From contig CP064995.1 of NCBI GenBank assembly GCA_016700015.1, positions 330,001 through 362,000 of the forward strand: a DNA stretch of 32,000 nucleotides. Reading direction: 5' to 3'. Under the pieces are notes generated by a model that saw only the letters and a program-made list of their open reading frames with translations, was not told the origin of the DNA and searched no databases. The translations under genes were made by a program, and so were the position numbers. This document shows, piece after piece, positions 3,116-30,941 of this stretch (positions within the stretch are counted from its first letter, which is position 1; every line of letters starts with the position of its first letter). This DNA is from Candidatus Saccharimonadota bacterium (GTDB taxonomy: Bacteria; Patescibacteriota; Saccharimonadia; Saccharimonadales; Saccharimonadaceae).

Positions 3116-3167
3116 ATCTTCCTAGAACTTGTACGCCAAGTGTACCTTCACGAGACAGGAGTTAAAA

Positions 3168-12374: not shown

Positions 12375-13373
12375 CTAAAGGCTTACTTTCTGAGTGGTTT
12401 TTCCATCAGCGCTGCTGCAATCGGTGCCGAAGTACGCCTTCTTAATGTCGCTCCCTGCGTAATCACTACATGGTATAAGGCCTTGTGTGCCTGTAAAATA
12501 GTGCCATACTTTGTCGGGCGTCTGGTAGAATAGACCTGCAAATCCGCCCATACCGATTTGACCGTCCATGACGCCGCTGACACCAATCTGAGCCGTCTGG
12601 TAGCCTTGAGTGCTACTCGCTTTGACAACGGGTATGCCATTAAACAATACCGTTGCATCGACGTCAGATTTGTTTGGGTAGATACCATAAAATGGTGACT
12701 GAGCTTTGGCCGTACTCACGTAGTCGCTCATATTTCCACAGCCAATTACGAATTGATGAGGACCAGCCGGGTTGTTATATGTTTTTGTATCTAAGAGTGA
12801 GCAAACGACGTCAGCCTCGGCATAGCGAATTGTAGAAGTTTCCATATCATCAACGGAGTTCAAAGTAGAGTCACTAAACCCCTTTTCTTTTAGTAGCTTG
12901 GTTATTTTTGCACGCATGACAGGGGCATCGTTTGCCGGTACTGATTGTGCGATTGATACAATCTTATTGCGATCAATGCCTGTGTAGAAATCATAGCCAG
13001 CAACTTTCAGGGGCTGGAGCATTGCGGTCGACTCATTTTCTACGGTACCCCGAAGTATTTCATTTACGGCATTTATTGTGTCAGCTGCAGTTAGTTTTTT
13101 TGAAGAAACAGGAGAGGTAGAGCTCGAGGTTGTTTGCGTCGGTATTGGCTGTTTCTCAAAATATTGCTTGTATAGTAGGAGCGTGGCGACACCACCTAGC
13201 GCTACTAGCAATAGCGCTAATACGACGACAAGTAGGGGTTTTGACCGTCGCTTCTTTTTCTCTATCACAAGCTCATTCTGGGTTTGAGCGATCAAATTCT
13301 CATTGTTCAAGTCTTGTATCGCATGATCATTATCGACCAACTGGGCTGATTGTGATGCCGGACGGTTGTTCAT
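12375..13373 (-). CDS. hypothetical single-pass membrane protein with Ser/Thr-rich linker and Cys-containing extracytoplasmic domain
   Basis: Start taken at MNNRPASQ (ATG 13373-13371), which has SD AAGGAGAGG 5 nt upstream. The predicted promoter lies inside the longer ORF-track version. TM helix PLLVVVLALLLVALGGVATLLLY, then TQTTSSSTSPVSS. Confidence 0.75.
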   Translation of the reverse strand: MNNRPASQSAQLVDNDHAIQDLNNENLIAQTQNELVIEKKKRRSKPLLVVVLALLLVALGGVATLLLYKQYFEKQPIPTQTTSSSTSPVSSKKLTAADTINAVNEILRGTVENESTAMLQPLKVAGYDFYTGIDRNKIVSIAQSVPANDAPVMRAKITKLLKEKGFSDSTLNSVDDMETSTIRYAEADVVCSLLDTKTYNNPAGPHQFVIGCGNMSDYVSTAKAQSPFYGIYPNKSDVDATVLFNGIPVVKASSTQGYQTAQIGVSGVMDGQIGMGGFAGLFYQTPDKVWHYFTGTQGLIPCSDYAGSDIKKAYFGTDCSSADGKTTQKVSL

Positions 13374-13413
13374 ATTCCTCTCCTTATATTTGACAACTAT
13401 ACTTCTCATGTTT

Positions 13414-13442
13414 ATTGTAGGTCTCTCTGAACTGTGAAGCAA
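13414..13442 (-). promoter_or_regulatory. promoter TTGCTT-17 nt-TACAAT (read on the minus strand)
   Basis: Reverse complement of 13437-13442 is TTGCTT and of 13414-13419 is TACAAT. Confidence 0.5.
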
Positions 13443-13643: not shown

Positions 13644-14057
13644 ATGCCTACAATTAATCAGCTCGTGCGAAAACCTCGCCAGATTGCCGGGAAGAAGAGC
13701 AAATCACCGGCACTCGGGCGAATCCATAACGCACTGAAGGTTCGCTACTACGACCAAGACGCGCCGCTAAAACGCGGTGTTTGTGTCAAAGTCACGACCA
13801 AAACCCCGAAAAAACCAAACTCGGCGCTTCGTAAAGTTGCCCGCGTGCGCCTTACTAATGGTCACGAAGTTTGGGCTTACATTGGTGGCGAGGGGCATAA
13901 CCTACAAGAGCATGCTGTTGTGCTTGTTCGCGGTGGTCGTGTGCCCGATCTACCAGGTGTCCGTTACCACATAGTTCGCGGTGCGCTCGACCTGCAGGGT
14001 GTCGCAAAGCGCAAACAAGGCCGTAGTAAGTACGGTGCCAAGAAGGCGGAGAAATAG
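13644..14057 (+). CDS. rpsL: 30S ribosomal protein S12
   Basis: [12 protein letters not shown]..., [20 protein letters not shown] and [27 protein letters not shown] upstream. Confidence 0.98.
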
Positions 14058-14060
14058 TTT

Positions 14061-14540
14061 ATGCCAAGAAAAGTCACTAAGAAACTACAACGCACCATTA
14101 AACCTGATCGCAAATACCAGAGCGTACTGGTGCAACGTCTCATTAACAAGAGTATGCTTGATGGCAAGAAGTTGGCCGCTGAGCGAATGGTGTATGCCGC
14201 GCTTGAGCAGGCTGCTAAGACGCTAAAGAGCGAAGAACCACTTGAAGTGTTTGAAAAAGCTCTGAGAAACATTAGCCCGAATTTTGAAGTTAAAAGCCGT
14301 CGTGTTGGTGGTGCTAACTATCAAATTCCTTTCCCCGTGCAAGGGCACCGTCAGCTCCACTATGCATTTAGCTGGTTAGTGCAGAGTGCTCGTGGCCGCA
14401 GCGGCATTCCCTATGAGAAGCGTCTCGCGCTCGAAATTGTCGATGCCTACAATGAAACCGGCGCTGCCTTCAAGAAAAAAGAAGATACTCACAAAATGGC
14501 CGAAGCCAACCGAGCATTTGCTCATTTTGCGCGCAGCTAG
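14061..14540 (+). CDS. rpsG: 30S ribosomal protein S7
   Basis: MPRK...PDRKYQSVLVQRLINKSMLDGKK, NFEVKSRRVGGANYQIP and KKKEDTHKMAEANRAFAHF. Starts 3 nt after the rpsL stop. Confidence 0.97.
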   Translation: MPRKVTKKLQRTIKPDRKYQSVLVQRLINKSMLDGKKLAAERMVYAALEQAAKTLKSEEPLEVFEKALRNISPNFEVKSRRVGGANYQIPFPVQGHRQLHYAFSWLVQSARGRSGIPYEKRLALEIVDAYNETGAAFKKKEDTHKMAEANRAFAHFARS

Positions 14541-14558
14541 TTGCTCGCAGCAATCACT

Positions 14559-14585
14559 AAACCGCTCCACGCCTGGGGCGGTTTT
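14559..14585 (+). terminator. intrinsic terminator directly after rpsG
   Basis: 11-bp stem aaaccgctcca / tggggcggttt (one G-U pair) with loop cgcc. T run at 14582-14585. Confidence 0.55.
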
Positions 14586-14588
14586 AGG

Positions 14589-14617
14589 TTGCACTAAAGT
14601 GCACGGTCTGGCATAGT
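14589..14617 (+). promoter_or_regulatory. promoter TTGCAC-17 nt-CATAGT, 7 nt before the ATG of island gene A
   Basis: Hexamers at 14589-14594 and 14612-14617. No SD before ATG 14625. Confidence 0.45.
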
Positions 14618-14624
14618 TGAATCA

Positions 14625-15347
14625 ATGGGGGAAAAAGCACCGAAAAGTACAGATGGGTATGTATGCTCGGCGAAGAGCGCACGCCTACTTAGTCGTCTGG
14701 CGGACCATAGTGATTATGTTTATGTTGTAGGCAACCGTGTTGTCGTCGAGAAAATGATCGATACTCCCTACAACGAGCATGGAATTGTTGATACGCGCGA
14801 GCTGTTCCGCAGAGTGCTTGGGACGGTATCTACAGAATATTACTGGCAGGGGTCGTATGAGGGCCCACACCATATTATGTGGCCACGAGGGTGGTATAGA
14901 CAAAAAACCGATGGTAAACAAATTGCAATGCAGTTTCGCAATAGCCCAACACTTCGTTTGTATTTACCCAGAGATCTGCATGACTTTACACATAAAATTA
15001 CCGACCCACCTGTGCCACCGAGCAGAGATGTTATGGAACAATACATCCTCGAACAGTGCCAAGTGCAGAACCTTTACGATATTGTTCGTTTTCACGGGCT
15101 CCACGATCTTCATGGTATGGCGCATGACGACAAAGAAGCATATCGCCTAGAACGATTTCGTGAACGGCTGAGTGAAATGGAGGATGGTTACGTAGGAGTC
15201 ATGCCAAGTCGCGAGTTTCTGGCGGCTCTTCCGCTACACACGGCACGACAAGTGGTTCGATCCCTCGCGCGAGTACAGGGGCTGTCAAACGATAAAGCAT
15301 CGAGAAAAGCCTTTTTCAGCCCATCCCGCAGCCAACTTGTCGCGTAA
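14625..15347 (+). CDS. hypothetical protein with xHH / HNH (His-Me finger)-like motif (island gene A)
   Basis: PHHIMWPRGWY-x13-N-SPTLRLYLPRDLHDFTHK has the order HH...P...N...LP..H...H, as in colicin-DNase/AHH-GHH type HNH nucleases. There are no zinc Cys ligands. This is a motif-level call only. Confidence 0.55.
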   Translation: MGEKAPKSTDGYVCSAKSARLLSRLADHSDYVYVVGNRVVVEKMIDTPYNEHGIVDTRELFRRVLGTVSTEYYWQGSYEGPHHIMWPRGWYRQKTDGKQIAMQFRNSPTLRLYLPRDLHDFTHKITDPPVPPSRDVMEQYILEQCQVQNLYDIVRFHGLHDLHGMAHDDKEAYRLERFRERLSEMEDGYVGVMPSREFLAALPLHTARQVVRSLARVQGLSNDKASRKAFFSPSRSQLVA

Positions 15348-15355
15348 ATAAGGGG

Positions 15356-15385
15356 TTGCATATTTGTCAAATATGTATTTATATA
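15356..15385 (+). promoter_or_regulatory. possible promoter TTGCAT-17/18 nt-TTATAT/TATATA in the AT-rich A-B spacer
   Basis: TTGCAT at 15356-15361. The AT-rich -10 candidates at 15379-15385 lie 9-10 nt before ATG 15395. Confidence 0.3.
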
Positions 15386-15394
15386 AATAACAAT

Positions 15395-16393
15395 ATGATT
15401 GATAGACAGCCGTCTGATAAATTTAATACCACTCCTGATGAAGCTGAGTTGTTTGCTTCGCTCAATGAGCAGCTGAGCGACCCACTTGTCGAGAATATAT
15501 ACACACAGGCACGCAAGTTTTTGCAGGACGCGAACACAACCGCAACTACTAATGAAGAACTGGTCGCTATGATACGAAAACTTGACGGACAATGGCCATA
15601 TATGAATACGCCCATGTGGGTATCTGGCACGCTACATACGGCAGATGTTATATCTGGCCAGTTCCGCGCTCGACAGGTAGTTGACTTGCCGGTAATCTCA
15701 AATGGTTTTATGTTTGCACCGGCTACGACTGTTGTTGACGGTGAAGTTGTGCAAGCGGGTCATCGAATTGGTCATTCTGTGCACGTAAGAGATGATACCG
15801 GCGCAATGTCATTTCCGGGCTTCGTGAGTCTGGATGAACTTGATCATTTAGAACTTCCATTCCCATCGGTCGAGCGTAGGCTGCAGCGATTCGCCTATGA
15901 TTTTCCAGAGTATGCGGCCGACATTGATACAATTGCATTCCAGGCGCGTCGCGATGACCAAATTGTCAAAGATATCGAAGCTTTTTATTTTGATGCTGAC
16001 GTCGACGATCCGCTCGATCTTGAGGCTGTTCGTGATGCGATGGTGTACTTAACCTACAAGGCCGAACTTGAGCCCAATTTGCCGTACTATGTGTCATTTG
16101 TCGGTCCCTTCATTGGGGTTGGAAGTAACGGCGAGCCATATCCGAACTCTCTGCAATATCCCCAGCAAGGTGTGATCTCAATCCACCAAATATTGCTTCG
16201 TCCTGGCGATGTAACGATAAAACAGACCAACGGTCGTCAGCGGCTCGTACCGTTTATCGAAGCGACGCTCCATAGCGCAACGCGAGATGGGACAGACAAA
16301 CACCTTCTCATTCCCTGCGGGGGTATTCAATGGATTGAGTCTGCGCGCTATACTTCGCCGCATGTTGCGCTATTCCGAGGCAAGGAGCCGTAG
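15395..16393 (+). CDS. hypothetical acidic protein, paralog family member 1 (island gene B)
   Basis: I prefer ATG 15395 (MIDRQPSD) over the ORF-track TTG 15356, which overlaps promoter-like AT-rich sequence. Shares four ordered motif blocks with genes C and D (see findings). Confidence 0.75.
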   Translation: MIDRQPSDKFNTTPDEAELFASLNEQLSDPLVENIYTQARKFLQDANTTATTNEELVAMIRKLDGQWPYMNTPMWVSGTLHTADVISGQFRARQVVDLPVISNGFMFAPATTVVDGEVVQAGHRIGHSVHVRDDTGAMSFPGFVSLDELDHLELPFPSVERRLQRFAYDFPEYAADIDTIAFQARRDDQIVKDIEAFYFDADVDDPLDLEAVRDAMVYLTYKAELEPNLPYYVSFVGPFIGVGSNGEPYPNSLQYPQQGVISIHQILLRPGDVTIKQTNGRQRLVPFIEATLHSATRDGTDKHLLIPCGGIQWIESARYTSPHVALFRGKEP

Positions 16394-16395
16394 CG

Positions 16396-18474
16396 ATGGC
16401 TGAGACACACGACGGTTCAGCTGATTTTGAGCCAGTACATTATAGCGCGGTTGCCGAACATGACGAAGTACTCGAAACGCTGAGGCAGCGTATCCGCGAT
16501 GTTGAGCGTATGCTCCGCGAGGATGAGTTACATGTCAGCGATGACCAGTTTACTCAGCTTACATTGGCTATCGAAAATGATTGGCCCTATAGCGCTTCGC
16601 CGGTGAAGTTGTTTGCAAAACTCCGGGCCCTCAGTGAGGGTGCTCCACTGCCGAATGCTATGCGCGACGCCTATGGCGAGTACTATATTCCTGACGGTTC
16701 AGCGCTCATGACAGCATGGGGCATGGAGTTTGTGCCACTCGACGATGCATCGGCCATGAGGGCGGTGTACATGTTTAGTCAGGTAGGTTCAAGTGCCGAT
16801 AGTCCCCGTTACTATTGCTTTGACGAGGATATCTTTTCGCTACAATTTGCAGAAATTGCTCCCGCGTCTCTTACCTGGCAACTCGAACGGCTAATGCCCG
16901 AAGCTATCACTGCTATTAACGCAGCGATCGAGGAGGGGGCGAGCCTGACCGACAAGATACGTGGTATGGAACACCTTTCGTTGAAATTACAGCCTTCAGA
17001 GTTCGGTGACTATAATATTCTTGATAAACTCGCGATGTACATGAACGATCGTTTGGGGATCGACCACCGTATTATGCATAATCTTGAGCTTGAGGGGTCG
17101 TTTATAATCACTGGTCATGATGATGAGGGCGATGAAATACAGTTTCCCGCAACCCTGAAAGAACCGTTCCATACCCCTGGGTATATTGGCTCCGTGCAGT
17201 TGGCTCTCGCAAAACAGCTAGATGGCAATGAAGCATATGTACCCCTGTTAACATTGTATACCCACACCGAGACAGATGGTGATGATGACGATGATGTGCT
17301 GCTTGTGCCGGTGGCGACCCTGCGCTCGGCAGTTTGTGTTCGGCCTCGCCTGTCGCTTGCCCGCAGTCTAGCGGCTCGGGTTGGTCCTGAATCGCTCGCT
17401 ATTGAAGTGGCTGAGTACGATGACGCTCAAATTACCGACATAGCACCAGCAAGGGGCACGACTCACTACGAAACGATCCGCTACCATCAGACTTTGCTCT
17501 ACGGTGCCCGAGAATTTGCTAAACAAGCGGCAAGTGTATGCTACGAAACAGCCGAAGATGCCATAGAAGCTGCCGAGACAGTTCAGCAGGCAATCGTCGA
17601 TATGTTCGGTGACGACTGGGAGGCTATGGAACAACATACCTATGTGGCGGATGGTATAGGTATATCGATACCAAACTATCTTCACGATGGCTACGAGAAC
17701 ACTGAACCGGGGATGCCGGGTGGTGCAATAATTTTCCGTCCCAACCCCGAACAAAATATTCGCGAAAACAGCCTTATGGAGCGGTACCATGTATCTTTGG
17801 AAGAGGTTGTTGCCTATGTGGACCAAGTCGAAGAGGGGGAAGGCGATGTATCGTATAGGGTGGGGATTGAAATGGCAGTAAAAGTGCTTGACCGTCCGAT
17901 TATGTATCGGCAGGCTATCCCGGGTTCTCGCCGCATTGCTCGTGATGTCAGTGTGACGGAGTATATATATGTACCGCTTGACGATACGGCGAGTTTACTC
18001 AATATTGACCTACACGATATGGAGCAGTTTAGTGTTGCTATGAAACGGTTTAAGCGTAGGCTTGAGGATATGCCTGATCTTAAAAAATCATACAGGGCTC
18101 TTTTAAAGCTTCAGCAAGCACTATTCTATGAGCGAGACGATGGTGAGCTGACATCGCTTCACCGCGTGGAATTATTGCAGGTACTAGGAGAGCAGGGTGG
18201 CGGTGATGAGCATGCCGCAGGACTAATCGTTGATTCACTCAGCGATTTACTGGGCGCAAAACGCCGGGTTAGCGTTGTGGGCGAAGTCCGGTACGAGGGC
18301 AAAGAGACTCATGCTGGAGCATTTGATGCAATAACAGGCGTAATCACTGATATCGTTTCTTCTTATGCGGGTTCGCCAGTTGAAGAGCCAATGCTTGTGT
18401 TTACGCGGCTCGACCCCACTGGCCCGACTCGGCTCTATGTGCCAATCGCTAGTCTAAAAGAATTCCATTTCTAA
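16396..18474 (+). CDS. hypothetical acidic protein, paralog family member 2, with C-terminal extension (island gene C)
   Basis: SD AAGGAG at 16381-16386. The ATG lies 2 nt after the gene B stop, indicating translational coupling. The first ~325 aa are homologous to B and D. Confidence 0.8.
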   Translation: MAETHDGSADFEPVHYSAVAEHDEVLETLRQRIRDVERMLREDELHVSDDQFTQLTLAIENDWPYSASPVKLFAKLRALSEGAPLPNAMRDAYGEYYIPDGSALMTAWGMEFVPLDDASAMRAVYMFSQVGSSADSPRYYCFDEDIFSLQFAEIAPASLTWQLERLMPEAITAINAAIEEGASLTDKIRGMEHLSLKLQPSEFGDYNILDKLAMYMNDRLGIDHRIMHNLELEGSFIITGHDDEGDEIQFPATLKEPFHTPGYIGSVQLALAKQLDGNEAYVPLLTLYTHTETDGDDDDDVLLVPVATLRSAVCVRPRLSLARSLAARVGPESLAIEVAEYDDAQITDIAPARGTTHYETIRYHQTLLYGAREFAKQAASVCYETAEDAIEAAETVQQAIVDMFGDDWEAMEQHTYVADGIGISIPNYLHDGYENTEPGMPGGAIIFRPNPEQNIRENSLMERYHVSLEEVVAYVDQVEEGEGDVSYRVGIEMAVKVLDRPIMYRQAIPGSRRIARDVSVTEYIYVPLDDTASLLNIDLHDMEQFSVAMKRFKRRLEDMPDLKKSYRALLKLQQALFYERDDGELTSLHRVELLQVLGEQGGGDEHAAGLIVDSLSDLLGAKRRVSVVGEVRYEGKETHAGAFDAITGVITDIVSSYAGSPVEEPMLVFTRLDPTGPTRLYVPIASLKEFHF

Positions 18475-18485
18475 CCTGTCTATGC

Positions 18486-18515
18486 TTGCAAATAGCGCGA
18501 TATATTTGACACAAT
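18486..18515 (+). promoter_or_regulatory. possible promoter TTGCAA-18 nt-CACAAT, 7 nt before the ATG of island gene D
   Basis: Hexamers at 18486-18491 and 18510-18515. No SD before ATG 18523. Confidence 0.3.
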
Positions 18516-18522
18516 ATAAAGT

Positions 18523-20238
18523 ATGAGTGAGTATACATCTGCCAATCCCGACGACGCAAATCACGCGGCCGAAGAGCTGCTTGGTAAACTCGAATTATTT
18601 CGATTTGACCCTCTACTTCAGAAATTATTTGACGAAATTGAGATTGCTCAGGAGTCGCTCCCTGGCTACGACAAGCGCGAAGCCAAAGACCAGGTAAAAC
18701 GACTTAATGAGATGCTACGCAGTACGGGCTGGATTGGTACACCGGTGGAGGTGACCGGTAAGCTGCGCATTGCGCCGTGGTGCGATATCGACGAAGCCTA
18801 TAGCGATCATGTAGGGTCGCAGGCACGGAAAGGGCGAGACGAGCTAGGTGAATATTTTGAAGTAGTCGGCCTCAACATGGTGTGTGCGCTTATCGAAATT
18901 GATACCGAAACCTATGACGACGCCGCAACCGGGCGTTTTGTCATGACACTGACCACGCCCGACGCCATGGTCGATGCCGAAGATGAAGTCGACGATGTTG
19001 ACCTGGAAGAGCTGCTAAACTCTGCCGGCGAGTATTATTTCTACCGATCAGACATTGTCGAGCTATCGTTTCGCGAGCCGTCGACCGAGCAGACTGGTGT
19101 TATGCTGGCCAACCATTACCCAAAGATTTTGCAGCGCATCCACCACGACATACCAGAGGGTCAGCCAGCAGGCCACCACATGCTCGGCGCACTAAAGCGA
19201 TTTGAACTGGAATACGATGTGCGCTACACCAATGAGTTTTTGCAGCATATTGTCGATTATATTTATGCCCGTATTTGCCCCGACAGTGGACAGTATCGTT
19301 TCACGCTCGATGGTCTCATTGGCACCGCTGCTGTCGAGACTGGTTTAGAGTGGGAGCATATGCCGGAGCGAACAAAGCTTTCGGGAGTGATCGTAGGCTT
19401 TGATATGGTATGGGCTAACGACGCCTACCGCATGGCATTTGTTGTCGCCGAAGAGGCGGTTGCCTATGACGGCGGTTTCGAGCTTCGGCTCATCCCCGTA
19501 GATAGTGTGATGAAGCTTGAATGCTTAAGGCCTAGTCGCAAACGGTTTGGTGAGCTTGCGGTGCACGCCTTTACATCGCCAGAAGAGGTGATGGACTATT
19601 GGCGTGAAGCAGAGAGTAACCCCAGGCCCCTACCTGAAATCGTCGCACAACCAGAAGTACCTGGGTCTAATGATGAAATATTTGCGGCCCTCACCGACGG
19701 TTTAGTCAGTGAAATGCATGCAATTGCATATCACGATAGTGTTCTTGGCGCAGACCTTGTGTCTATCCAGCCCGACATTGATATGATTGTGACTGATTTT
19801 GCCGACCATGTGCGCATGTCTGAGGAATGGGACATCGATACGCCACTAAGTGCTAGTGATTTAGCTGCTATTAGTAAACTTATGGATAAAACACTTTCGC
19901 GCTTAGAGGCTTTGCGTGTAGGCGATAGGGTCGTAGCGGGTGGGCGGGTGCTTATTCTCGACGAGAGCGAGCCTGGTGTTAGTGATGTAGTGGTGGTTGA
20001 CGAAGGCACTTGCATTGTCGGTACGAGCGTCAATACGGTCATTTGCGACGTGCCAGAACTAGCATTTTATGATGAAGAATCCGGCACAACTCCGCGGAGT
20101 ACGATTGGTGTCGGGATACTGCTTGAAAATTGCCAAATTATAGATGGCGACGAAATACATGACGCGCCGTTTCATTCAAAGCAGGTGATTGTAGTGCTTT
20201 CACCGTCGCAAGGCACCGATTTCTACCAGGTTGTATAA
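18523..20238 (+). CDS. hypothetical acidic protein, paralog family member 3, with C-terminal extension (island gene D)
   Basis: The first ~345 aa carry the same ordered motif blocks as B and C. Acidic runs such as DAEDEVDDVDLEELL. Confidence 0.8.
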   Translation: MSEYTSANPDDANHAAEELLGKLELFRFDPLLQKLFDEIEIAQESLPGYDKREAKDQVKRLNEMLRSTGWIGTPVEVTGKLRIAPWCDIDEAYSDHVGSQARKGRDELGEYFEVVGLNMVCALIEIDTETYDDAATGRFVMTLTTPDAMVDAEDEVDDVDLEELLNSAGEYYFYRSDIVELSFREPSTEQTGVMLANHYPKILQRIHHDIPEGQPAGHHMLGALKRFELEYDVRYTNEFLQHIVDYIYARICPDSGQYRFTLDGLIGTAAVETGLEWEHMPERTKLSGVIVGFDMVWANDAYRMAFVVAEEAVAYDGGFELRLIPVDSVMKLECLRPSRKRFGELAVHAFTSPEEVMDYWREAESNPRPLPEIVAQPEVPGSNDEIFAALTDGLVSEMHAIAYHDSVLGADLVSIQPDIDMIVTDFADHVRMSEEWDIDTPLSASDLAAISKLMDKTLSRLEALRVGDRVVAGGRVLILDESEPGVSDVVVVDEGTCIVGTSVNTVICDVPELAFYDEESGTTPRSTIGVGILLENCQIIDGDEIHDAPFHSKQVIVVLSPSQGTDFYQVV

Positions 20239-20280
20239 CGGAATTAGCCGGTTTCGCTACTAGTCACCCCAGGGAGAATG

Positions 20281-20289
20281 TGCTATACT
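20281..20289 (+). promoter_or_regulatory. extended -10 element TGcTATACT upstream of fusA
   Basis: TG at 20281-20282 and TATACT at 20284-20289, leaving a leader of about 64 nt with SD AAGGA before ATG 20354. Confidence 0.4.
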
Positions 20290-20353
20290 ACACCCCAAGT
20301 GCTATTTTCTAATGGCAAAAATTGGTAGCTAACTAAATAATAAGGAACAACGA

Positions 20354-22441
20354 ATGGCAACTCCAACCAATGTCCCACTCAAGGACTTTAGAAACGTCGG
20401 TATTATCGCGCATATTGATGCTGGCAAAACAACCACAACCGAAGGTATTTTGTACCGTACTGGCCTGAGCCACAAAATCGGTGCCGTGCACGAAGGTGAA
20501 ACGACGACCGACTGGATGGAGCAAGAGCGTGAGCGCGGTATCACTATCACCAGTGCGGCCGTGACGTGTTTTTGGAAAGACCACAAAATCAACATCATTG
20601 ACACTCCTGGTCACATTGACTTTACAGCTGAAGTAGAGCGTAGTTTGCGCGTGCTTGACGGTGCCGTGACAGTATTTGACGGCAAAATGGGCGTGGAAGC
20701 ACAGAGTGAAACGGTGTGGCGCCAGGCCAACAAGTACGGTGTGCCGCGTATCTGTTTCATCAACAAAATCAACCAGACTGGTGGCGACTTTTACAAATCG
20801 CTCCAGAGTATTCACAATCGTCTCAGCAAAAATGCGCTACCTATCCATTTGCCAATTGGGTTTGAAAAAGACATCAATGGTGTTGTTGACCTTGTTGACA
20901 TGAAAGCCTATACGTATGGTGACTTTACTGATCATGAGCTTGTGCAAGGTGAAGTTCCTGCCGATATGCTCGAAAAAGCTAAGAACGCGCGTAGTCTACT
21001 GGTTGAGGCCGCTGTCGAGGCCGACGACGCGCTGATGGAGAAGTTCTTCGAGCACGGTGAAGAAGCGATTAGCGTAGAGGAGTTAAAGGTTGCTTTGCGT
21101 AAGCGTGTGCTGGCAGGCGACTTTTATCTTGTTACGGGTGGCGATGGCCGCGGTGTCATTGTCGAAAAGGTGCTCGACCTCATGGTTGACTATTTGCCAA
21201 GTCCGCTTGATGTAGCTGAAATATGGGGCAAAAACCCTAAAACTGGCGACGAAGTGAGCCGCAAACCTGACGACAAAGAACCAATGGCTGCGCTGGCCTT
21301 TAAGCTCGCAACCGACCCATTTGTCGGTAAGCTGATTTTTGTGCGCGTGTATAGTGGTGTGTTGACGGCCGGTAGCTACGTGCTCAATACCACTACTGGC
21401 GAAAAAGAACGCATCGGGCGTATTGTCCGTATGCACGCCGACAAGCGTGAAGATGTCGACAAGGTTGGTGCTGGCGACATTGCCGCAGTCGTGGGGCTCA
21501 AAGGCACCTTCACTGGCCATACACTTTGCGACGTCGCTCACCCGATTGCGCTTGAAGCGATTACATTCCCTGAACCCCCAGTCAGTATTGCTGTCGAGCC
21601 AAAAACCAAAGCCGACCAAGAAAAAATGGGCATTGCCTTGCAACGCCTGGCCGAAGAAGACCCAACCTTCCGTGTGCATACCGACGACGAAACTGCTCAA
21701 ACGATTATGAGCGGTATGGGCGAGCTTCACCTCGAAATTCTGATCGACCGCATGAAGCGCGAATTTAATGTTGAGGCCAATGTTGGTGAGCCGCAAGTCG
21801 CCTTCCGTGAAACCATCAAAGGTACCGCCGAAGTGCAGGGCAAGCACGCCAAGCAGTCTGGTGGACGTGGTCAGTATGGTGACGTATGGGTACGCTTTGA
21901 GCCAAATGAACCTGGCAAAGGCTTCGAATTTATCGACGCTATTAAGGGTGGTGTGGTGCCACAAGAATACCGCCCAGCCGTACAAAAGGGTATTCGTGAA
22001 ACACTCGATGGCGGTGTGATTGCCGGCTATCCAGTGGTTGATGTCAAAGCAACGCTCTACGATGGTAGCTATCACGATGTTGACTCAAGCGAACTCGCCT
22101 TTAGCCTAGCTGGTAGCCTTGCTGCCCGCGCTGGTGTGAAGCAGGCCACTCCGATCATCCTTGAACCCGTCATGCATGTCGAAGTGACTACACCCGAAGA
22201 ATTCATGGGTGATATCATCGGCGACCTCAATAGCCGTCGTGGCCGTATAGAAAGCATGGAAGACCTGATGGGCGGCGCCAAGCTGATTAAGGCGATTGTG
22301 CCACTTGCCAACATGTTTGGCTATACTGGAGACATCCGCAGTATGAGCCAAGGCCGCGCTGCCAGCACCATGGAGCTCGCGCACTACGAAGAAGTCCCGC
22401 CAAACGTGGCGCAGGAAATCATCGAAAAGCGCAGCAAGTAA
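20354..22441 (+). CDS. fusA: translation elongation factor G (with atypical G4/G5 motifs)
   Basis: G1 [12 protein letters not shown], switch I RGITI and G3 DTPGHIDF are present. Domain IV/V regions match, e.g. [12 protein letters not shown] and [13 protein letters not shown]4 reads NKIN rather than NKxD. Confidence 0.96.
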
Positions 22442-22494: not shown

Positions 22495-22513
22495 AGTTTG
22501 TGCTTAAATCTAC

Positions 22514-22542
22514 TTGTTTTTCCTACCTGTCGCTCGTATGAT
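22514..22542 (+). promoter_or_regulatory. promoter TTGTTT-17 nt-TATGAT for the rhs gene
   Basis: Hexamers at 22514-22519 and 22537-22542. SD AGGGAGG at 22553-22559. Confidence 0.45.
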
Positions 22543-22563
22543 AAAAGCAACAAGGGAGGTTAT

Positions 22564-25500
22564 ATGCGGGGATATGTTGGTGTATTTGGTCGGGGCAAAA
22601 AGGTTATTCAGCGCAGTGCGCTGTTTTTTCTTACCTTTATGCTTGTGTTTGGGCTTATTGAACCGGGTATTTACCGCGCCTATGCCGAAAGTAACTCCCA
22701 GAAAGTGTTTCGCACCGACTACAAGCTAGACCCACTTTTGTCACAAAACCCAGCCACAAGCACGGTGCTCACCGAAAGCGGAGGTACTGAGCTACAACGC
22801 CCACTTGCCGAAAACGCCAGGCAATACCGCTATGAAGATACCACCAAGCGAACAAGTAACACATCGACGTCCGTCAACAATGATGGTACAAAAACACTCC
22901 TGTATAGCCAAAAGCAGCTTAACTACAAACAGGGCAACAAATGGGAGAAAATAGATAACCAGCTTTCCGCAACCGAGAACATAGCGCCAGCGGCTAATTT
23001 GTGGCAAATCCTCACCAACACCGCACCTAAAGCAGATGCTCCGAGCGAGTACACAGGCAAGGCCGGACAGGCAGCTGTGGCCATGAAACGCTCCAATGAA
23101 GGCATTAGTATAGCCATCGCCAACAAGACCATCACCATGACTCCAGTGGGAGCGGCTGGGGCAAAACCAGAAAAAATTGATGACACATCGGTTTTATACC
23201 GCGACGTTTGGCCCGGGATCGATCTGCAGTATGAGCTTCGCGGCGAAGCCATCAAAGAAGCAATCATCATTAAATCAAAATCCGCAAAGACAAACTTCGA
23301 GTTTATGTTTGGCGGTGGGAGTTTGAAGCAACATCCAAAATATGAGGGCAAGTTAACTGTTGAGGGTCTGCCCGACAGTTATGTTCTTGGTGACCTGTCG
23401 GTTCAGCTTAATGACCGTGGAGTCATCAGCGAGCAGCCTATGACGCAAAAAATAGTGGATGGCAAGCTTGTTGTTTCGCTCGACGCAAAGTGGTATGCGG
23501 CGTTGCCAGAGTCATCATTTCCAATACGTATAGACCCTACGCTCGGACCAGTCAATGACCAGACTGACTGGATGTTTAAGTCAGATGGATACTCGTGCAA
23601 CGGCTGGACATGCTGGATCAATACCGGCTCTATCTACGACAACGGTTGGAAAAGCTGGCGCACACTGTTCCAGTTTCCATACCCAGAGCTTGCAGGCAAG
23701 CGCATTGTTAATGCAAACATGCACGGTACGTTTCAGCCTAACGCCAATGGTGATACCAATGGTAGAAACATCTATATGGGCCATGCGACATGCATTGGAT
23801 TTAACTGTACGGGTATTTACATTGGTAATGCATGGGCGGGGACTGATTTTGACATCAACTTCACCAATGAACTGAATAACACGGTTGCATCGGGCGACAT
23901 GGGCGCGGTATGGAGTGTGTGGGGTGAAGAGGGCGCGTACAAGAGTTTCAAGCCATATCACTACATGACAGCAACCGTGGTGTATGACACGCCGACCCCA
24001 GTTGCTCCGGCTGTTTCACCTGCAAATGCACAAGTTGTTGTTGACACACAGCCAACACTTCGTGTTAACGCGGTTACAGATGCCGATGGCGATACAGTTC
24101 AATATTATTTCAGGGTAAGCACTAACCCCGACGCCGAAAGTGGAGCAGTCATCAATTCGGGATGGATTTCGTCCCCGCAATGGACAATACCCGATGGCGT
24201 ACTACAAGACGGTACCACATACTACTGGCATGTGTACACTCTTGGTGCGACTCAGACAAATCCAAACTGGACGCGCAACTTTAAAGTAGATCTACGTACG
24301 GGCAAAGACAGCACTCAGAGCTATGACACAGTCGGTCCGGTGGGTATCGACCTTGCGACTGGAAATGCCACCATGGGCGTGGGCACTCACGGTATGAAGG
24401 CACTGGGTGGTACAATCGGCCTAAACCTTAGCTACAACACGCCAAACCGGGCAAAAAGGGGCTTAAGTGCCGAGTACTGGAATTTACCTGCAAACTATAG
24501 TTTTGCGAGTGGTGCGCCCAGCTCGGCTGCCACCGTGACAAGGCGTGACCAAAACATCGACAACAACTGGAGTAGTGGATCACCCACGCCGGCGATAACC
24601 AACGATTGGTTCTACGCGCGCTGGACGGGGCAGTTTGTGGCGCCGGTCACGGGTACGTACAATTTTGGCGGGTCCAATGATGACACAATGAGGGTGTGGG
24701 TAAATGGTGCCGAGCAATACAACCAGAATTGCTATAGTGGCATATGCTATGACACGACGAAAAGTATAAGCCTGAGCGCAGGGCAGGCGGTGCCGATCAA
24801 AGTTGAATACCTAGATGCCGTTGGTGCGGCCAATGCTAAATTGTATGTCAAAGGCGCGGTGCCGGAGCAGGTAGTGTCGTCAGACTGGCTCTATAGCGAC
24901 GTGGTCAATTCTCCGCTCGGCTATGGTCTGACCGGTCGGTACTATACGGACAATGCCAATGCTCACGACTTCGATGCCGCAGCAGCTGATCCATTTCGTC
25001 TTATGATGCAGCGAGTTGATAGCAGTATGACTCTCAACTTTGGATTGAATGGGCCAGCACAAGGACTCCAGGCCGACAACTTTATGGCGCGCTGGACTGG
25101 CTACATAACCGTTCCCACTGCTGGTAGCTATACGCTCGGTGCTACTTCGGACGACGGTATCCGTATAAAAGTAAATACTGGCACCTGGCAAACGCCACTC
25201 GATAGTTTGGTTGACCATGCCGGTACCTACTGGGGTAGTGCGGTGTCACTGCCCGCCAACACGCCTATTCCGATCCAGGTCGACTGGTATGACCACGGTG
25301 GCGGTGCTCAGCTAAACCTACAGGTGCAGGGCAATGGCTATGCCGCACAGTCTGTGCCAGCTACCTGGCTCACGCCAGACGCCAATGTGCTCCCCGCACA
25401 GTGGAAGCTTGGTATTGATGCCGACGGCAATGTTGCCTACGAGCGGCTACGAGTAACTACGAACTCAGTGATTCTCGAAGATTCAACCGGCAGTACACAT

Positions 25501-28500
25501 GAGTACGGCTACAAAAACGGCGGCTACACGCCCCCGGTCAACGAAGACGGCACGCTGAGCAAAAACGCCGACAACACCTATACCTTGGCCGACACCGACG
25601 GCCGAACGTATGTATTCAACGCCGACGGTACGCTGCAATCGGTATCGTCACCAACTGACGATCGTCAGCCTGCTGCGCTCAAATACACTTACGGCGGATC
25701 GCCATCACGACTGCTCAAAATCGAAGACGGTACCACCAGCGCCCGCTATGGGACGGTCATATACAAAGGTGTCAACGAAACCAACAATATATGCGACAAA
25801 AACGGCACCAACAATCCTTCGGCGCTGTTTGGTCTCATCAGTAGCTTTGCCGATGCACCAAGTGGTAAACTGTGTGCCTTCACTACCAGCGATGGCGACA
25901 CGACAAACTTCTACTACGACAGTAGCGGTAACTTGGCACGCATTGTACAGCCAGGCGGGCAGGTGACCGACTATGCCTACGACCAGTATGGGCGTATTAC
26001 CGACGTGCGCGATAGTGTCGCGGCCGATGCAATCGCGGCTGGTATCCGTGCTGTCGATAATAGTGTATTGACCACACTAACCTACGACACTCTTGGCCGT
26101 ATTAGTTCGGTCAAAGCACCAGCTGCTACGGCAGCTGCTCAGCGGCTCGAGCATGCACTTGGCTATAAATTATCAAGCCAGCTACCTGTGAGTCGTTTCT
26201 ACAACCTCACTACTGGCGATCACCGCGCCAGTATAGCGTCCAACCTGCCTGGCTACATACTCGAATTTACCCATGGCTACATATTCAAAGATAGCGGTAC
26301 CAACCTCACCCCACTATATAGTTGCGTTGTTGGCACAAGCAATGAAATGGTGTCGCTCGACAGCAACTGTGAAGGAACGGGGATTTTGGGCAGGCTCGGC
26401 TACGCCTACGATCGTACCAAGCCGCAACCAGCAGGGACTGTGCCGCTGTATCGGTGCCGTGTCGGTGGTGAACACTTTACCTCTACTCAGAGCAACTGCG
26501 ATGGCTATATATTCGAGTTCTTGCTAGGCTACCTGAGTATAGGATTTGACTACCAAGGTATTGCCGAACTACACATTGCCGGTGCCAGCGAACCGAGCGG
26601 CTATAGCAAGCGTATTCAGTATGACACCCTGCTACGCACCACTGCCGAAACCGACCTAACCGGCAAGTCTGTCAAAACCGAGTGGGATAGTGTGAAAGAC
26701 CTTCAGCTCAGCAAGACCGACGCTACTGGAATGAAGAGCACAACAATCTACGACGTGCTCGACCGCGCAACTGATAGCTATGGCCCTGCGCCCAGCGCGT
26801 GGTTTGGAGCCGACAGGAAGCCTGTTGCCGCGCAGGTGAACAATGTGCCCCATACCAGCACGGGCTATGACGAGTCGGATGGTATGAAGGGCCCGGCGGT
26901 GTCGTGGTACGACGTAAAAGGCAAAACCCTGACCGGTGCGCCGCGTTACAATACGACGGGCTTCAGTAGCGACCTTTCACGGCTTTGGTACGACAACAAC
27001 AACTTTGCATTACCAATTACTCCAGGAGTAGGGATGGATGGTGTAGGGCTACGGGCCACGGCTAAACTCATGACCCCACCCGCTACCGGTCAATACAAGC
27101 TATTAGTTTGCTACACAGATGCCATACGCGTGTTTGTCGATAACCAACTTCAGTTTAACCAGTGGGACAATCGCAATTCCACGGTTGTCTGTGGCTACTC
27201 GGGCTTATTCACCCTCACTGCCGGGACTGCGCCAAACCTCGTCATCGAAGCGGCCAAATATGGCTCTCGACTGGCATTTTCGATCAATCTGTATCGTGCA
27301 GATAACACCCTTGTCAGCACAGCGAGTGGCGTGAACGATCGCTGGTCGCCCCTCGGCATTACCGCCGGCTACAACCTTACCACTAGCACCACTGCCTACG
27401 ACAGCCAGCTCGGCAATGTCACTAGTACCACCCAATATGCCAACCCTGCCTATGGAACAGTCGGCAGCACTACGCTCGACCCAACTGGGCTAAACTATGT
27501 GTCTCAGGCTACGTACGAAGCCCCAGGGGCGGGCTATCTGCGCCAGACGAGCAAAACACTGCCCGGTGGTGCCACGACCACCTATCAGCACTATGGTGGC
27601 ACCGAAACAGCCGACAACCCCTGCACACCCGAAACCGACCCGGCACCACAAGCGGGTATGCCAAAAGGAAAGGTAGACCCCACCGGCCGCACTACCACCA
27701 CTGTGTACAACCATTCGGGCGACGTAGTAGCTACACGCTACAATAGCGACCCGTGGACGTGTACCAGCTACGACACCCGCGGTCGCGTAACCCAAACAGT
27801 AGTGCCGTACATGAACAGCAAAAACGGCCGTACTATAGCTAACAACTATGCCGTCGGTGGCAATCCGCTTGTCACTAGCACTACCGACGACAGTGGTACT
27901 ATATCGGTCGAAAACGACTTGCTCGGCCGCACCGTCAAATACACCGATGCAAAAAACAACGTCACCACGAACACGTACGACGATTTCGGCAAACTCACAA
28001 GCCGTACTAGCCCCATTGGCACCGAAAGCTACGAATACGACCAGTACGACCGGCTCGTGAAACAAAAACTCGACACCGTGACCATGGCGACCGTCACGTA
28101 CGACGAATTTAGCCGCATTCAGTCCGTGCAGTACCCAGCAGGCATGAGCCTAAGTAGTATAACGCGCGACACGCTCGGTAGAGAAAACAGCAATACTTAT
28201 ACGCTGGCAAACGGCCAAACACTCACCGACCAAATAACTAGGTATACGAGTGGCGACATTCAAAACGGCACCGAACTGGGGGTTGGCAAATCCTACATCT
28301 ACGACAAAGCCGGTCGCTTAACAAGTGCCACTATCGGCAGCAATACCTATAGCTACGGTTTTGGCGCCCAGCACGCTAGCTGTAGCCTGCCAGCTGGGTA
28401 TGATGCAGGTAAAGACGGCAACCGCACCAGCATGACAGTCAACGGCCAAACCACTACGTATTGCTACAACAACGCCGATCAGCTGGTAAGCGGCAGCGAC

Positions 28501-29592
28501 CCATCGCTCACAAATGTCCAGTACGACACCCACGGCAATACTACTAGCCTTGGTGACGCTACTCATAAAACAACCTTTGGCTACGACTCCACTGATCGTA
28601 ACACAAGTATCGGAGGCAATGGCACCACTAGCTTCATCCGTGACGTCCAGAGCCGTATCGTCACACGCGAGCATAAAGACGGAGCGGGCACCACCACTAG
28701 CCTCGTCAACTATGGCTTCACTGGCAGTGGCGACACTCCCGACTTCCTCACCGACAATACTGGTACAGTGGTGCAAAAGTATCTGACACTCCCGGGTGAC
28801 GTGTTAGTGACCATCAAACCCCAATCCACCAGTGCTGGTGCCACTACCTATAGCGTGCCTAATATCCATGGCGATGTGATGGCGACAGTCAACGCCGACG
28901 GAGCCCTTACCAGCACCTTCCTGACTGGCCCTTTCGGCGAAGTACTCCCCACCCAACCACAGACTACTACCACACGTGGCGGTGCGCTCACCACCCCAGA
29001 ACCACTGCAACAACTCGCCCCATCGTCTACTCCAACCAACACTGCATCCGGCACCACCTACAGCTACGTCGGTCAACACGAGAAGATGACGGATATAGAA
29101 ACCAGTGCTATAGTGGGTGGTATCACCCAAATGGGTGCGCGTGTTTACATACCAGTGCTAGGACGGTTTCTGAGTATTGACCCGGTAGATGGTGGTGTAG
29201 ATAACAATTACAACTATCCAAATGATCCGGTGAATAACTTCGATTTGAGCGGAGAGGCGCAGCACGGTAAGCAGCAGGCGAAACCTAAAGTCTTATCGTA
29301 TAGGGAACAGGAACTTTTAAATGGTCCAAAAACTAAAATTAACTCAAAAGAGTATCAAAAAGCTCTCGACAAAGTTAAATACAATGAAAAGATATCGGGC
29401 GTAAGGAAATCACGATGGTCAAACTCGAAACCATCAACTCCGACACTCAAACCAAGTGGAAAAACATCGACGCCTAAAGTCAATATATCTGCCAAGCCAA
29501 CTACACGCCTTCCGATAATTTGGATGATCATAATGCCTAAGACGATCTATAATGGGTTGCTGTACGGGCCGGGTGGCGGAGCTCCCGTATAG
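22564..29592 (+). CDS. WapA/Rhs-family YD-repeat polymorphic toxin precursor (2342 aa) with N-terminal signal/anchor, three PA14 modules and a variable C-terminal tip
   Basis: Start taken at ATG 22564 ([32 protein letters not shown] is a hydrophobic signal/anchor). There are many YD repeats, e.g. [71 protein letters not shown]. The Rhs core end is [41 protein letters not shown]. Confidence 0.93.
24460..24890 (+). other. PA14-like domain 1 within the Rhs protein
   Basis: [10 protein letters not shown]...[36 protein letters not shown]...[20 protein letters not shown]. Confidence 0.8.
24925..25380 (+). other. PA14-like domain 2 within the Rhs protein
   Basis: [10 protein letters not shown]...[34 protein letters not shown]...[20 protein letters not shown]. 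Confidence 0.8.
26194..26538 (+). repeat. three tandem ~35-aa protein repeats of the RFYN..GDH..T type embedded in the YD-repeat region
   Basis: The three units are [64 protein letters not shown] and [31 protein letters not shown]. Confidence 0.6.
26890..27300 (+). other. PA14-like domain 3, inserted inside the YD-repeat region
   Basis: [16 protein letters not shown]...[41 protein letters not shown]...[27 protein letters not shown]. Confidence 0.6.
29257..29589 (+). other. variable C-terminal tip (putative toxin) of the main Rhs protein, family unrecognised
   Basis: About 111 aa after the core-end motif DLSGE. It is Lys-rich ([45 protein letters not shown]...) and ends in a hydrophobic segment, [27 protein letters not shown]. 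Confidence 0.5.
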
Positions 29593-29605
29593 AAAGGAAT
29601 CAAAT

Positions 29606-29917
29606 ATGAAATTAAAGCAATGGTATGGAGTTCGATCGCTGGTATTCGATCCAGATAATGAGTTTTACGAGGAGCGCACGGTTATTGTTTTAGCAAATTC
29701 AAAAGATGGGGCATTAACGAAAGTAGCCAAGCATACGAACGAATACTGTAAATCGGTTGGACTTGAAGACTGTTTATACAGCGAGGTATTCAAATTAGTT
29801 GACAAAGATATTGGAGATTTAACAGAGGTGTATTCATGTATGCGGTATAGCGATTTTACTCCTAAGCAATATGTGAACAAGTTTTTAGCTACCGGGGATG
29901 AGGTTAATTTAGAGTAA
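29606..29917 (+). CDS. small cytosolic protein, candidate cognate immunity protein (from memory resembles the DUF4288-type pattern; unverified)
   Basis: ATG 29606 with SD GAAAGGA, 13 nt after the rhs stop. MKLKQWYGVRSLVFDPDNEFYEERTVIVLANSKDGALTKVAKHTNEY...GDLTEVYS. No TM segment. Confidence 0.6.
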   Translation: MKLKQWYGVRSLVFDPDNEFYEERTVIVLANSKDGALTKVAKHTNEYCKSVGLEDCLYSEVFKLVDKDIGDLTEVYSCMRYSDFTPKQYVNKFLATGDEVNLE

Positions 29918-30028
29918 AATGATGGTGTTAATGCCTCATTCTGAGGACAAGGTATTTACATAAATATTCGAATTTGGAGAGATAAGTTCAGGATATAATA
30001 TTTCCATTACACCTTGACAATTAATTCA

Positions 30029-30931: not shown

Positions 30932-30941
30932 GAGTATAAAA

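Follow-up and report, generated by a model that had tools for sequence, protein, structure and literature searches.

Why does a member of Saccharibacteria keep four genes of no recognizable family between rpsG and fusA, and what could their products do? The question is raised by a 32,000-nucleotide stretch of a Candidatus Saccharimonadota genome (contig CP064995.1, positions 330,001 to 362,000; herein referred to as the window). In this stretch, four same-strand genes, named here A, B, C, and D and together the cassette, fill the interval between the rpsG stop at 14540 and the fusA start at 20354. The original prediction, made from the nucleotide sequence, described the block as an island interrupting a normally contiguous gene pair and offered two options for it: a conflict or defense module, or a set of translation-associated factors. 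According to our analysis, the locus is fixed, old, and clade-wide, being neither an insertion polymorphism nor a recent insertion nor a mobile element. For its function, we give roughly even chances to a reading in which non-enzymatic acidic proteins, with a metal-dependent partner that is optional, form a non-essential interaction module that is specific to the lineage and diversifies by recombination. Compared loci of other genomes and metagenomic contigs are denoted by L numbers.

Profile searches with the A–D proteins gave no significant match in Pfam, NCBIfam, PADLOC, or PHROGs, and no translation-family profile was matched in Pfam or NCBIfam. The claim that none of the four belongs to a housekeeping family is therefore upheld in four libraries. 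Searches against PDB sequences returned nothing, either with ortholog profiles or with deep family profiles; the leftovers were a 24-residue stretch aligned to a designed helix bundle and noise at E>0.1. A Walker A motif is absent from A–D, as is any NTPase, helicase, or methylase domain of Pfam. No transmembrane-grade hydrophobic segments (maximal KD19 value 1.4) or signal peptides were found in these proteins. Rfam had no match for the whole window and none for the fusA leader. No earlier description of the cassette was found in the searched literature.

The B, C, and D proteins are strongly acidic (pI 4.2–4.9, net charge from -20 to -91). Their mutual BLASTP scores are insignificant (E 0.02–0.65), though the three acidic paralogs of the original prediction were recovered by hhalign and by hidden Markov models (HMMs). 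With ortholog-only alignments, B versus C residues 25–334 scored 98.4% (E 4e-15), D residues 49–338 versus C scored 98.6% (E 1e-15), and B versus D scored 68%. A single-pass HMM built from C orthologs alone found D at 1e-20 and B at 1e-9 to 1e-13. Judged by these profiles, B, C, and D are true paralogs, visible only at the profile level. Their shared acidic module of ~320 aa makes up the whole of B, residues ~1–335 of C, and residues ~1–340 of D. It is followed by a C-specific C-terminal domain (~346–692) and a D-specific one (350–571), which are related neither to each other nor to A.

Conservation within the module was read from an alignment of 75 sequences with a mean identity of 22%. The near-invariant residues are D29, P30, W67, G78, G104, F105, S158, P307, and R318, a pattern that appears structural rather than catalytic. 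Apart from structural residues, conservation in the 75 sequences extends to a single Asp, a single Ser, and a single Arg; the module is therefore probably non-enzymatic and would serve as a binding or scaffold protein. No family of Pfam, PADLOC, or PHROGs was found when 52 long module-family members were scanned singly. The AlphaFold model of B, built from 7 sequences, has a predicted local distance difference test score (pLDDT) of 48 and is unusable. An HK97/encapsulin-like fold of B, considered for its predicted succession of a helix, a long hairpin, and a long helix, was rejected for lack of profile, PHROG, or fold support and for the poor model. The module can duplicate inside one gene, since a 774-aa protein of L094 (940–3264) holds two tandem copies (residues 1–358 and 521–708). 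The D gene is shortened in some relatives, so that its C-terminal domain alone survives as a protein of 193–227 aa.

An exhaustive HMM search among 1.84 billion proteins yielded 256 cluster representatives of the module family. Their length classes of 310–345, 560–590, and 690–740 aa mirror B, D, and C, respectively. Word-seeded homolog searches gave 2 hits each for B and C, as the family diverges too fast. Genomic contexts were retrieved for close relatives, for relatives at 50–60% identity of A, for very distant module members, for eight metagenomic loci found with A, and for six of 80 reference species found with S7. The ~25 loci examined have the family only between rpsG and fusA and on the same strand, with no member elsewhere within ±10 kb in the retrieved contexts. 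The sole exception to this observed position is L094, located on a 3.4-kb contig that is too short for flanks.

The junction was surveyed by a reference-genome scan anchored on S7 in 80 Saccharibacteria species. The gap between rpsG and fusA varies among them from 3 nt to 5.8 kb, which makes contiguity of the pair, the starting point of the original prediction, an unsafe expectation in this group. In Nanosyncoccus-type genomes, no fusA was found within 9 kb of rpsG. At least eight kinds of content were found in the slot: YajQ/DUF520, an alpha-amylase, a trypsin-like protease, an APH-type kinase, a CMAS-type methyltransferase, a GAPDH-RpiB-Rpe-PfkB-LOG block, orphan sets unrelated to A–D, and the A/B/C/D family itself. 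Within this part of the tree of Saccharibacteria, the slot has become a general hotspot at which genes are turned over.

In a neighbor-joining tree of EF-G and S7, every family-bearing locus falls into one clade, and both the sister lineage of this clade and its deeper relatives have the canonical junction. Two sets of cassette-free lineages are nested inside the clade: L028–L032, which are back to a gap of 35–177 nt, and the Nanosynbacter/Minimicrobia group, in which YajQ or other genes, not the cassette, occupy the slot. Because the family sits only at this junction in one clade, the locus appears to be old and vertically inherited with repeated losses. A single origin followed by vertical inheritance and repeated loss or replacement would be the simplest reading of this tree. 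Comparison of the junction across relatives, proposed with the original prediction for separating an insertion polymorphism from a fixed feature, thus favored the latter.

Other unassigned, mostly acidic proteins were found in the slot of genomes nested within the clade, namely L033 (10563–15634, five genes of 226–375 aa), L018, and L012 (10458–11917). No relationship to A or the module was detected by HMM or hhalign in the orphan cassettes of L033, L018, L014, L012 (383-aa protein), and others, which represent replacements or members diverged past recognition. The A and module families are confined to this site in one clade, unlike genes supplied from a pool that is shared by horizontal transfer. 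Clade members appear to exchange with one another and not with outside sources.

The composition of the cassette varies strongly. The complete order A-B-C-D was found in the window, L092, and L007, and the order A-B-C-short D in L009, L011, and L099–L105. Smaller or rearranged sets include A-B (L015 and L027), A-YajQ-B-B' (L034), B-D (L095), and B-B-C-D-fragment (L096). Single elements are also found: C alone in L012, D alone in L026, the C-terminal domain of C alone in L019, the tandem-module fusion in L094, and a methyltransferase with a degraded D in L097. Thus, the four genes co-occur in many genomes, as the original prediction implied, though in varying composition; the copy number ranges from 1 to 5, with domain losses. 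Wherever present, A lies upstream of a B-type gene, mostly adjacent to it, with YajQ in between in L034. Several cassettes (L012, L026, L095, and L096) have B/C/D-type genes without A. Because B–D are intact without A or beside an A gene with a nonsense codon (L092 and L093), they probably have a role of their own and are not simply inhibitors of A.

The cassette evolves much faster than its flanks. Between the window and L007, L009, and L011, flank proteins are 89–97% identical, and the identity is 53–59% for A, 29–47% for B, 25–52% for C, and 26–60% for D. Lengths and order of the open reading frames (ORFs) are kept down to 25% identity. Against the closest relative, L092, dN/dS is 0.11 for B, 0.13 for C, and 0.10 for D, in agreement with the purifying selection looked for among relatives, and 0.013–0.022 for rpoC, rpsL, rpsG, and fusA. 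Within one population, the values are 0.04–0.22 for the cassette and at most 0.02 for the flanks, except for one S7 pair at 0.07. Purifying selection on the cassette is 5–10 times more relaxed than on the flanks. These values suggest that the cassette genes are functional but much less constrained than their neighbors. Positive selection as the driver of divergence was rejected, as dN/dS is 0.22 or less across all genes and blocks.

Similarity of the cassettes is incongruent with that of the flanks: EF-G is 96% and C 25% identical between L007 and L009, and EF-G is 89% and C 55% identical between L009 and L011. Recombination was seen directly in a population comprising L099–L102 and L105, in which flank proteins are 99–100% identical (dS 0.02–0.19) and C occurs in two allele groups. 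Here the locus is a mosaic, with a background of 98–99% identity interrupted by sharply bounded blocks at 72–79%. The hypervariable codons 326–580 of C form one such block and others were found in B and D, with different genome pairs differing in different blocks. Inside the blocks, dS is ~1.0 and dN/dS ~0.18; the background dS is 0.03–0.18. Because of these values, the blocks can be considered imports by homologous recombination that remain under purifying selection. A similar tract was found in fusA codons 86–170 (L100, 13012–13261), where dS is 0.75 against 0.10–0.17 elsewhere in the gene and the amino-acid sequence is unchanged. The conserved flanks are therefore also reached by homologous exchange between lineages.

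The A protein, identical to NCBI IPM09_01860 (Candidatus Saccharibacteria bacterium), is neutral to basic and is the best conserved product of the cassette. Only 13 homologs were found among 5.8e9 clustered proteins, and no relative was found in IMG/VR viral contigs. Invariant residues down to 19% identity are G53, W74, H82, H83, Y91, R105, R116, H119, H123, P129, P132, and M137, which include the motif H82-H83...R105...R116...H119-(D/N)-x-x-H123. The four histidines H82, H83, H119, and H123 are invariant in 12 sequences and could form a metal site; an HNH site is compatible with them, and other metal sites are equally so. No family of Pfam or NCBIfam was matched by A at E<=1, and thus no nuclease homology was found. 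When 12 A-family members were scanned singly, three unrelated single hits at E ~0.2 were obtained and no HNH profile, and PADLOC and PHROGs were likewise negative for these members. The AlphaFold2 model of A (12 sequences) has a pLDDT of 65, falling below 50 in the motif region, and Foldseek searches of the models against PDB and BFVD gave nothing at E<0.6, leaving A without a structural match. Of the HNH-like label given to A by the original prediction, the motif resemblance therefore stood, and no profile or fold match was obtained for the rest. Two further candidates were rejected. An HD-domain reading of the H...HD...D residues has no Pfam HD hit, and the Asp is replaced by Asn in distant members; for a sigma region-4-like helix-turn-helix at the C-terminus, the segment is too short to hold the complete motif.

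The A gene of the closest relative is interrupted by a nonsense codon. In two independent samples, L092 (8492–8494) and L093, the same CGA codon for the invariant Arg88 is changed to TGA, corresponding to positions 14886–14888 of the window. The B–D genes are intact in this relative, and the rest of the A frame is still well conserved, so that the change is either a recent inactivation or a stop codon that is read through.

The elements and spacings around the cassette (Table 1) agree with their description in the original prediction, including the four-gene block and its coordinates, the hairpin, the A promoter, the fusA element TGCTATACT, and the B–C spacing; the terminator and the separate promoters are conserved in relatives. 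The terminator consists of AAACCGCTCCA-CGCC-TGGGGCGGTTT followed by T's, with an 11-bp stem (one G-U pair), a 4-nt loop, and a T-rich tail. A hairpin with a T-run was found at the same place in L092, L007, L009, L011, and nearly all non-canonical junctions, its stem differing in sequence between lineages; canonical junctions, with fusA directly next, have no hairpin. Because of this covarying terminator after rpsG and the conserved promoter and leader before fusA, the cassette is probably transcribed on its own.

The putative A promoter comprises TTGCAC (14589–94), a 17-nt spacer, and CATAGT (14612–17), ending 7 nt before the ATG at 14625. Its -10 region GTCTGGCATAGT and the 7-nt distance are kept in the window, L092, and L007; the element was not among the hits of the consensus scan. 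No Shine-Dalgarno sequence was found before A or before B. The short distance to the ATG and the missing Shine-Dalgarno sequence suggest a leaderless or near-leaderless A mRNA. In the A–B spacer, a core of ~37 nt (GGGTTGCAT…TATATAAAT) is identical in the window and L092, with the adjoining coding DNA at ~87%. This spacer is possibly an internal promoter for B-C-D; no promoter was called in it by the consensus scan. The mechanical ORF of B begins at TTG 15356, and the ATG at 15395 is backed by gene callers and ortholog alignments. The ATG of C at 16396 sits 2 nt past the B stop at 16393 and is preceded by AAGGAG, and C is probably translationally coupled to B.

For fusA, the predicted promoter consists of TAGTCA (20261–66), a 17-nt spacer, and the extended -10 element TGCTATACT (20281–20289), listed with its TG by the consensus scan. 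The general form across loci is TAGTCA-17-TGnTATAnT, followed by a leader AAGTGCTATTTT...TAATGG. The conserved leader AAGTGCTATTTTCTAATGGC (20297–20316) lies between the promoter and the Shine-Dalgarno sequence and recurs at this place in about 20 loci, where it may regulate the expression of EF-G. Ten loci that differ in their cassettes share this promoter and leader, as do all family-bearing loci; both elements are absent from Nanosynbacter-type and canonical junctions.

Table 1. Features of the rpsG–fusA region, in positions of the 32,000-nucleotide window.
Feature	Position	Strand	Basis
rpsL	13644..14057	+	
rpsG (ribosomal protein S7), upstream anchor of the slot	14061..14540	+	Pfam Ribosomal_S7 on the identical gene in L001
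Predicted intrinsic terminator of rpsL-rpsG	14559..14585	+	hairpin, dG -16.2
Promoter-like element TTGCAC-17-(TGG)CATAGT	14589..14617	+	sequence; conserved -10 region
Gene A, 240 aa, small soluble protein with histidine motif	14625..15347	+	
A–B spacer, AT-rich (GGGGTTGCATATTTGTCAAATATGTATTTATATAAATAACAAT)	15348..15394	+	sequence
Gene B, 332 aa, pI 4.7, acidic module alone	15395..16393	+	
Gene C, 692 aa, pI 4.5, module and C-specific C-terminal domain	16396..18474	+	
Gene D, 571 aa, pI 4.3, module and D-specific C-terminal domain	18523..20238	+	
Predicted fusA promoter and leader	20261..20316	+	consensus scan; conservation across loci
fusA (EF-G), downstream anchor of the slot	20354..22441	+	EF-G Pfam domains on the identical gene

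The gene order of the window is hisS (partial), a pilin-like gene, tig, an ORF of no assigned function, clpP, rpoB, rpoC, a minus-strand membrane ORF, rpsL, rpsG, A, B, C, D, fusA, and a gene for an RHS toxin. Among relatives, rpsG shares 89–97% and fusA 90–96% identity. The GC content of the cassette (0.48–0.52) is flank-like, and GC3 also resembles that of the neighbors. The search of the window for tRNA genes was negative, no integrase was found, and repeats flanking the cassette do not exceed the chance level. These results, together with the missing Walker A motif and transmembrane segments, confirm the negatives listed with the original prediction.

Several other variable sites were found in the same region. 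Directly after fusA, a 2364-aa RHS/YD-repeat protein is encoded (window 22498–31487 region), with PA14 domains on record for its L007 ortholog. It is followed by a barnase-type Ribonuclease-domain ORF (30059–30931), which is overlapped by a SUKH_5/SMI1-KNR4 immunity-like ORF (30924–31487); GC falls to 0.42–0.45 past ~29000. The arrangement resembles a polymorphic-toxin locus that includes an orphan toxin-immunity pair. An RHS gene was found 3' of fusA only in the window, L001, and L007, and is absent from L009, L011, and L092. The adjacency of fusA and tuf is also broken in the clade by several unrelated genes (L095, 15573–16757; L097, 17128–18312). Between rpoC and rpsL, the window has a minus-strand ORF (12375–13442) with one hydrophobic segment and no known domain. 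This gap holds 1–2 unassigned minus-strand genes (315–377 aa) in relatives and none in L007 and L095, and looks like a second variable slot of the same conserved gene row. A 342-aa ORF (3129–4157) with a higher GC content of 0.55 and no Pfam hit lies between tig and clpP, which are directly adjacent in L007; this ORF may be another lineage-specific insertion. A pilin-like gene with an N-terminal methylation motif is located between hisS and tig (1100–1705), and in L009 (9450–9941), L010, and L103 a minus-strand pilin-like gene interrupts the interval from rpsG to A.

Taken together, these data can be accommodated by the following model. In a single lineage of Saccharimonadales, rpsG would have been closed off by a terminator and fusA given a new promoter of its own, leaving a plasticity slot between the two signals; the cassette, an old accessory block of one clade, would reside in this slot. 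It would be transcribed from the leaderless-type promoter at A, and possibly from a second one before B, with translation of C coupled to that of B. The module would bind or scaffold, and A would be a dispensable metal-dependent enzyme or metal-binding partner acting with the first B-type protein. The module would be engaged with a partner, host, or genetic parasite that tolerates or favors rapid sequence turnover. Diversification of the cassette proceeds through gene duplication and loss, domain loss, and homologous recombination bringing in divergent segments.

Several points weigh against this model. The phylogeny is a single neighbor-joining tree on two proteins without support values. The predicted structures are poor, with a disordered motif in the model of A and a B model that is poorer still. 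No gene-wide or block-wide positive selection was found, and the imported blocks are under purifying selection. Given the silent block in fusA, recombination may be a property of the whole region, and what we call diversifying may be merely low constraint. The promoters are predicted from conservation of their sequence, and the T-tract of the terminator is short, so read-through from rpsG is possible. Finally, the family has stayed strictly linked to the str operon despite its deep divergence, which could stem from a functional connection with translation that escapes these analyses.

This last point leads to an explanation by lineage-specific translation- or ribosome-associated factors, for example acidic mimics binding the ribosome, EF-G, or ribosomal proteins and co-regulated with the str operon. 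Every genome with the family keeps it between rpsG and fusA in the same orientation, it has long been retained in 1-Mb genomes, where it takes ~0.6% of the DNA, and its acidity fits binding to basic ribosomal components. However, the predicted terminator and separate promoters insulate the cassette from both neighbors. The codon adaptation index of A–D is 0.61–0.65, within the range of ordinary genes of the window (0.56–0.72) and against 0.74–0.80 for the reference set of rpsL, rpsG, fusA, rpoB, and rpoC (0.68–0.79 with leave-one-out). By their codon usage, A–D do not look like proteins made in ribosomal amounts. Translation factors would also not be expected to vary from 1 to 5 copies with domain losses, to undergo repeated losses, among them those of the entire Nanosynbacter/Minimicrobia group and of L028–L032, or to fall to 25% identity while their supposed partners stay at 90–97% (EF-G at 94–96%). 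The position of the family can be explained by a permissive site, because unrelated genes (YajQ, amylase, protease, APH, methyltransferase, and orphans) fill the same slot. We therefore consider a translation role, the second option of the original prediction, unlikely. The same sort of long shot is a related but broader possibility, in which B, C, and D represent a new fold or family forming a hetero-oligomeric acidic complex specific to environmental Saccharibacteria, with A as its metal-dependent enzymatic partner. Such a complex would act on the translation or transcription apparatus or as a new conflict system; for example, it could be a nucleic-acid or ribosomal-protein mimic tuning EF-G or the ribosome in the epibiotic life cycle.

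The first option of the original prediction divides into two readings, a toxin with inhibitors and a defense system. In the former, A would be a toxin with His-Me/HNH-type or other metal-dependent nuclease activity, against which the acidic B, C, and D would serve as inhibitors or immunity proteins. Colicin-type HNH DNases have an HH...HxxxH motif, and the A pattern HH...H-(D/N)-x-x-H, invariant across deep divergence, resembles it. The charge contrast between A and B–D, the constant position of A upstream of a B-type gene, and the loss of A with retention of B–D, the order expected for a toxin and its antidote, also fit. Nevertheless, neither A nor the 12 A-family members matched an HNH or nuclease profile, even at E<=1, or any known structure; B/C/D-type genes are under purifying selection where A was never present or was long lost (L012, L026, L095, and L096); no secretion or delivery domain was found; and inhibitors of 330–740 aa in three paralogous copies would be unprecedented. 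A nuclease with acidic inhibitors is thus improbable. A new anti-phage or anti-plasmid system in a chromosomal defense hotspot would account for the variable content at a fixed site between conserved genes, the mosaic alleles exchanged between lineages, the accessory status with losses in the Nanosynbacter/Minimicrobia group and L028–L032, and the possible nuclease-like motif in A. However, neither the proteins of the window nor the 52 family members gave a PADLOC hit, and no ATPase, helicase, methylase, or other hallmark domain was found. No recognizable defense system was seen among the other cassettes of this site, which consist of metabolic genes or orphans, and dN/dS is well under 1 in all tests, with no positive selection. 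Additionally, defense systems usually spread horizontally across taxa, and this family is vertical in one clade. Defense is accordingly a slim prospect, slightly slimmer than the toxin reading. The notion of a recent mobile island or of decaying non-functional ORFs could appeal to the lack of known homologs, the A pseudogene in one lineage, and the degraded D of L097. It is largely refuted and has next to no probability: base composition is neighbor-like, mobility genes and repeats are absent, A has no viral-contig relatives and PHROGs was negative, ORF lengths and order are kept to 25% identity at dN/dS of 0.1–0.2, and the family-bearing genomes form a single clade. Given that the genes co-occur, evolve under purifying selection, and fall into no housekeeping family, the lineage-specific block seen by the original prediction stands. 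Of its two options, a lineage-specific accessory or "conflict-like" locus remains the better one, and this preference rests on evolutionary behavior.

Saccharibacteria and other members of the Candidate Phyla Radiation have genomes of ~1 Mb, in which roughly half of the genes are uncharacterized and each retained gene is expected to pay. The cassette uses ~0.6% of such a genome for four orphans, kept in changing combinations at one site clade-wide. A break of contiguity, with a terminator and a new fusA promoter, would have created a slot since filled with very different genes in each lineage. It also illustrates that a paralogous family can stay position-locked while diverging to 25% identity, and the flanking translation genes could provide homology arms for allele exchange. 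If the module has a defined partner (host, phage, or ribosome), it would open a way into the biology of environmental Saccharibacteria that are uncultivated; otherwise, the locus would still be a clean natural example of how flexible islands originate in streamlined genomes. If the B/C/D proteins do form a complex of the kind outlined above, it would be a functional system without counterpart among those described.

Several known systems resemble the cassette in part. YajQ/DUF520 occupies the same slot in the Nanosynbacter-type L016, L020–L023, and L025 and accompanies family members in L026 and L034, but it is an unrelated, widespread, 164-aa family and is not present in the slot of the window. 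With HNH/His-Me finger nucleases, such as the colicin E7/E9 DNases (HH...N...H-x3-H), A shares an HH doublet followed by H-x3-H on a predicted helix. In contrast to them, A has a longer spacing (35 residues) and no identifiable Asn position, it matched neither a Pfam HNH family nor a known structure, and the motif is modeled at pLDDT below 50; HNH-like is, on this motif evidence, a label of resemblance only. Type II toxin-antitoxin and polymorphic toxin-immunity pairs are similar in that a small neutral-to-basic protein is encoded beside an acidic one and that the "toxin" can vanish with the acidic genes staying. They differ from the cassette, whose acidic proteins have 330–740 aa, occur in up to five paralogous copies, are conserved without A, and contain no known toxin or immunity domain. 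The RHS, barnase-like, and SUKH_5 polymorphic-toxin locus 3' of fusA also looks quite unlike the cassette.

Flexible islands of the replacement type are found in streamlined genomes, as in HVR2 of SAR11/Pelagibacter, which is situated inside the cluster of rRNA genes; loci for O-antigen or capsule are likewise bracketed by conserved genes. The cassette appears to be alike in being fixed between highly conserved housekeeping genes, in content that differs between close relatives, in mosaic alleles incongruent with the flanks, and in the absence of mobility genes. A fixed site with varying content was found in the survey of 80 species, and incongruence between alleles and flanks was found together with recombination tracts. 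The known islands differ in mostly carrying recognizable cell-surface or glycosylation genes, whereas the cassette encodes soluble acidic cytoplasmic orphans of a private, single paralogous family, not a shared gene pool, and lies inside the str operon. With these differences, the closest analogue in kind would be a replacement-type flexible island anchored by conserved genes.

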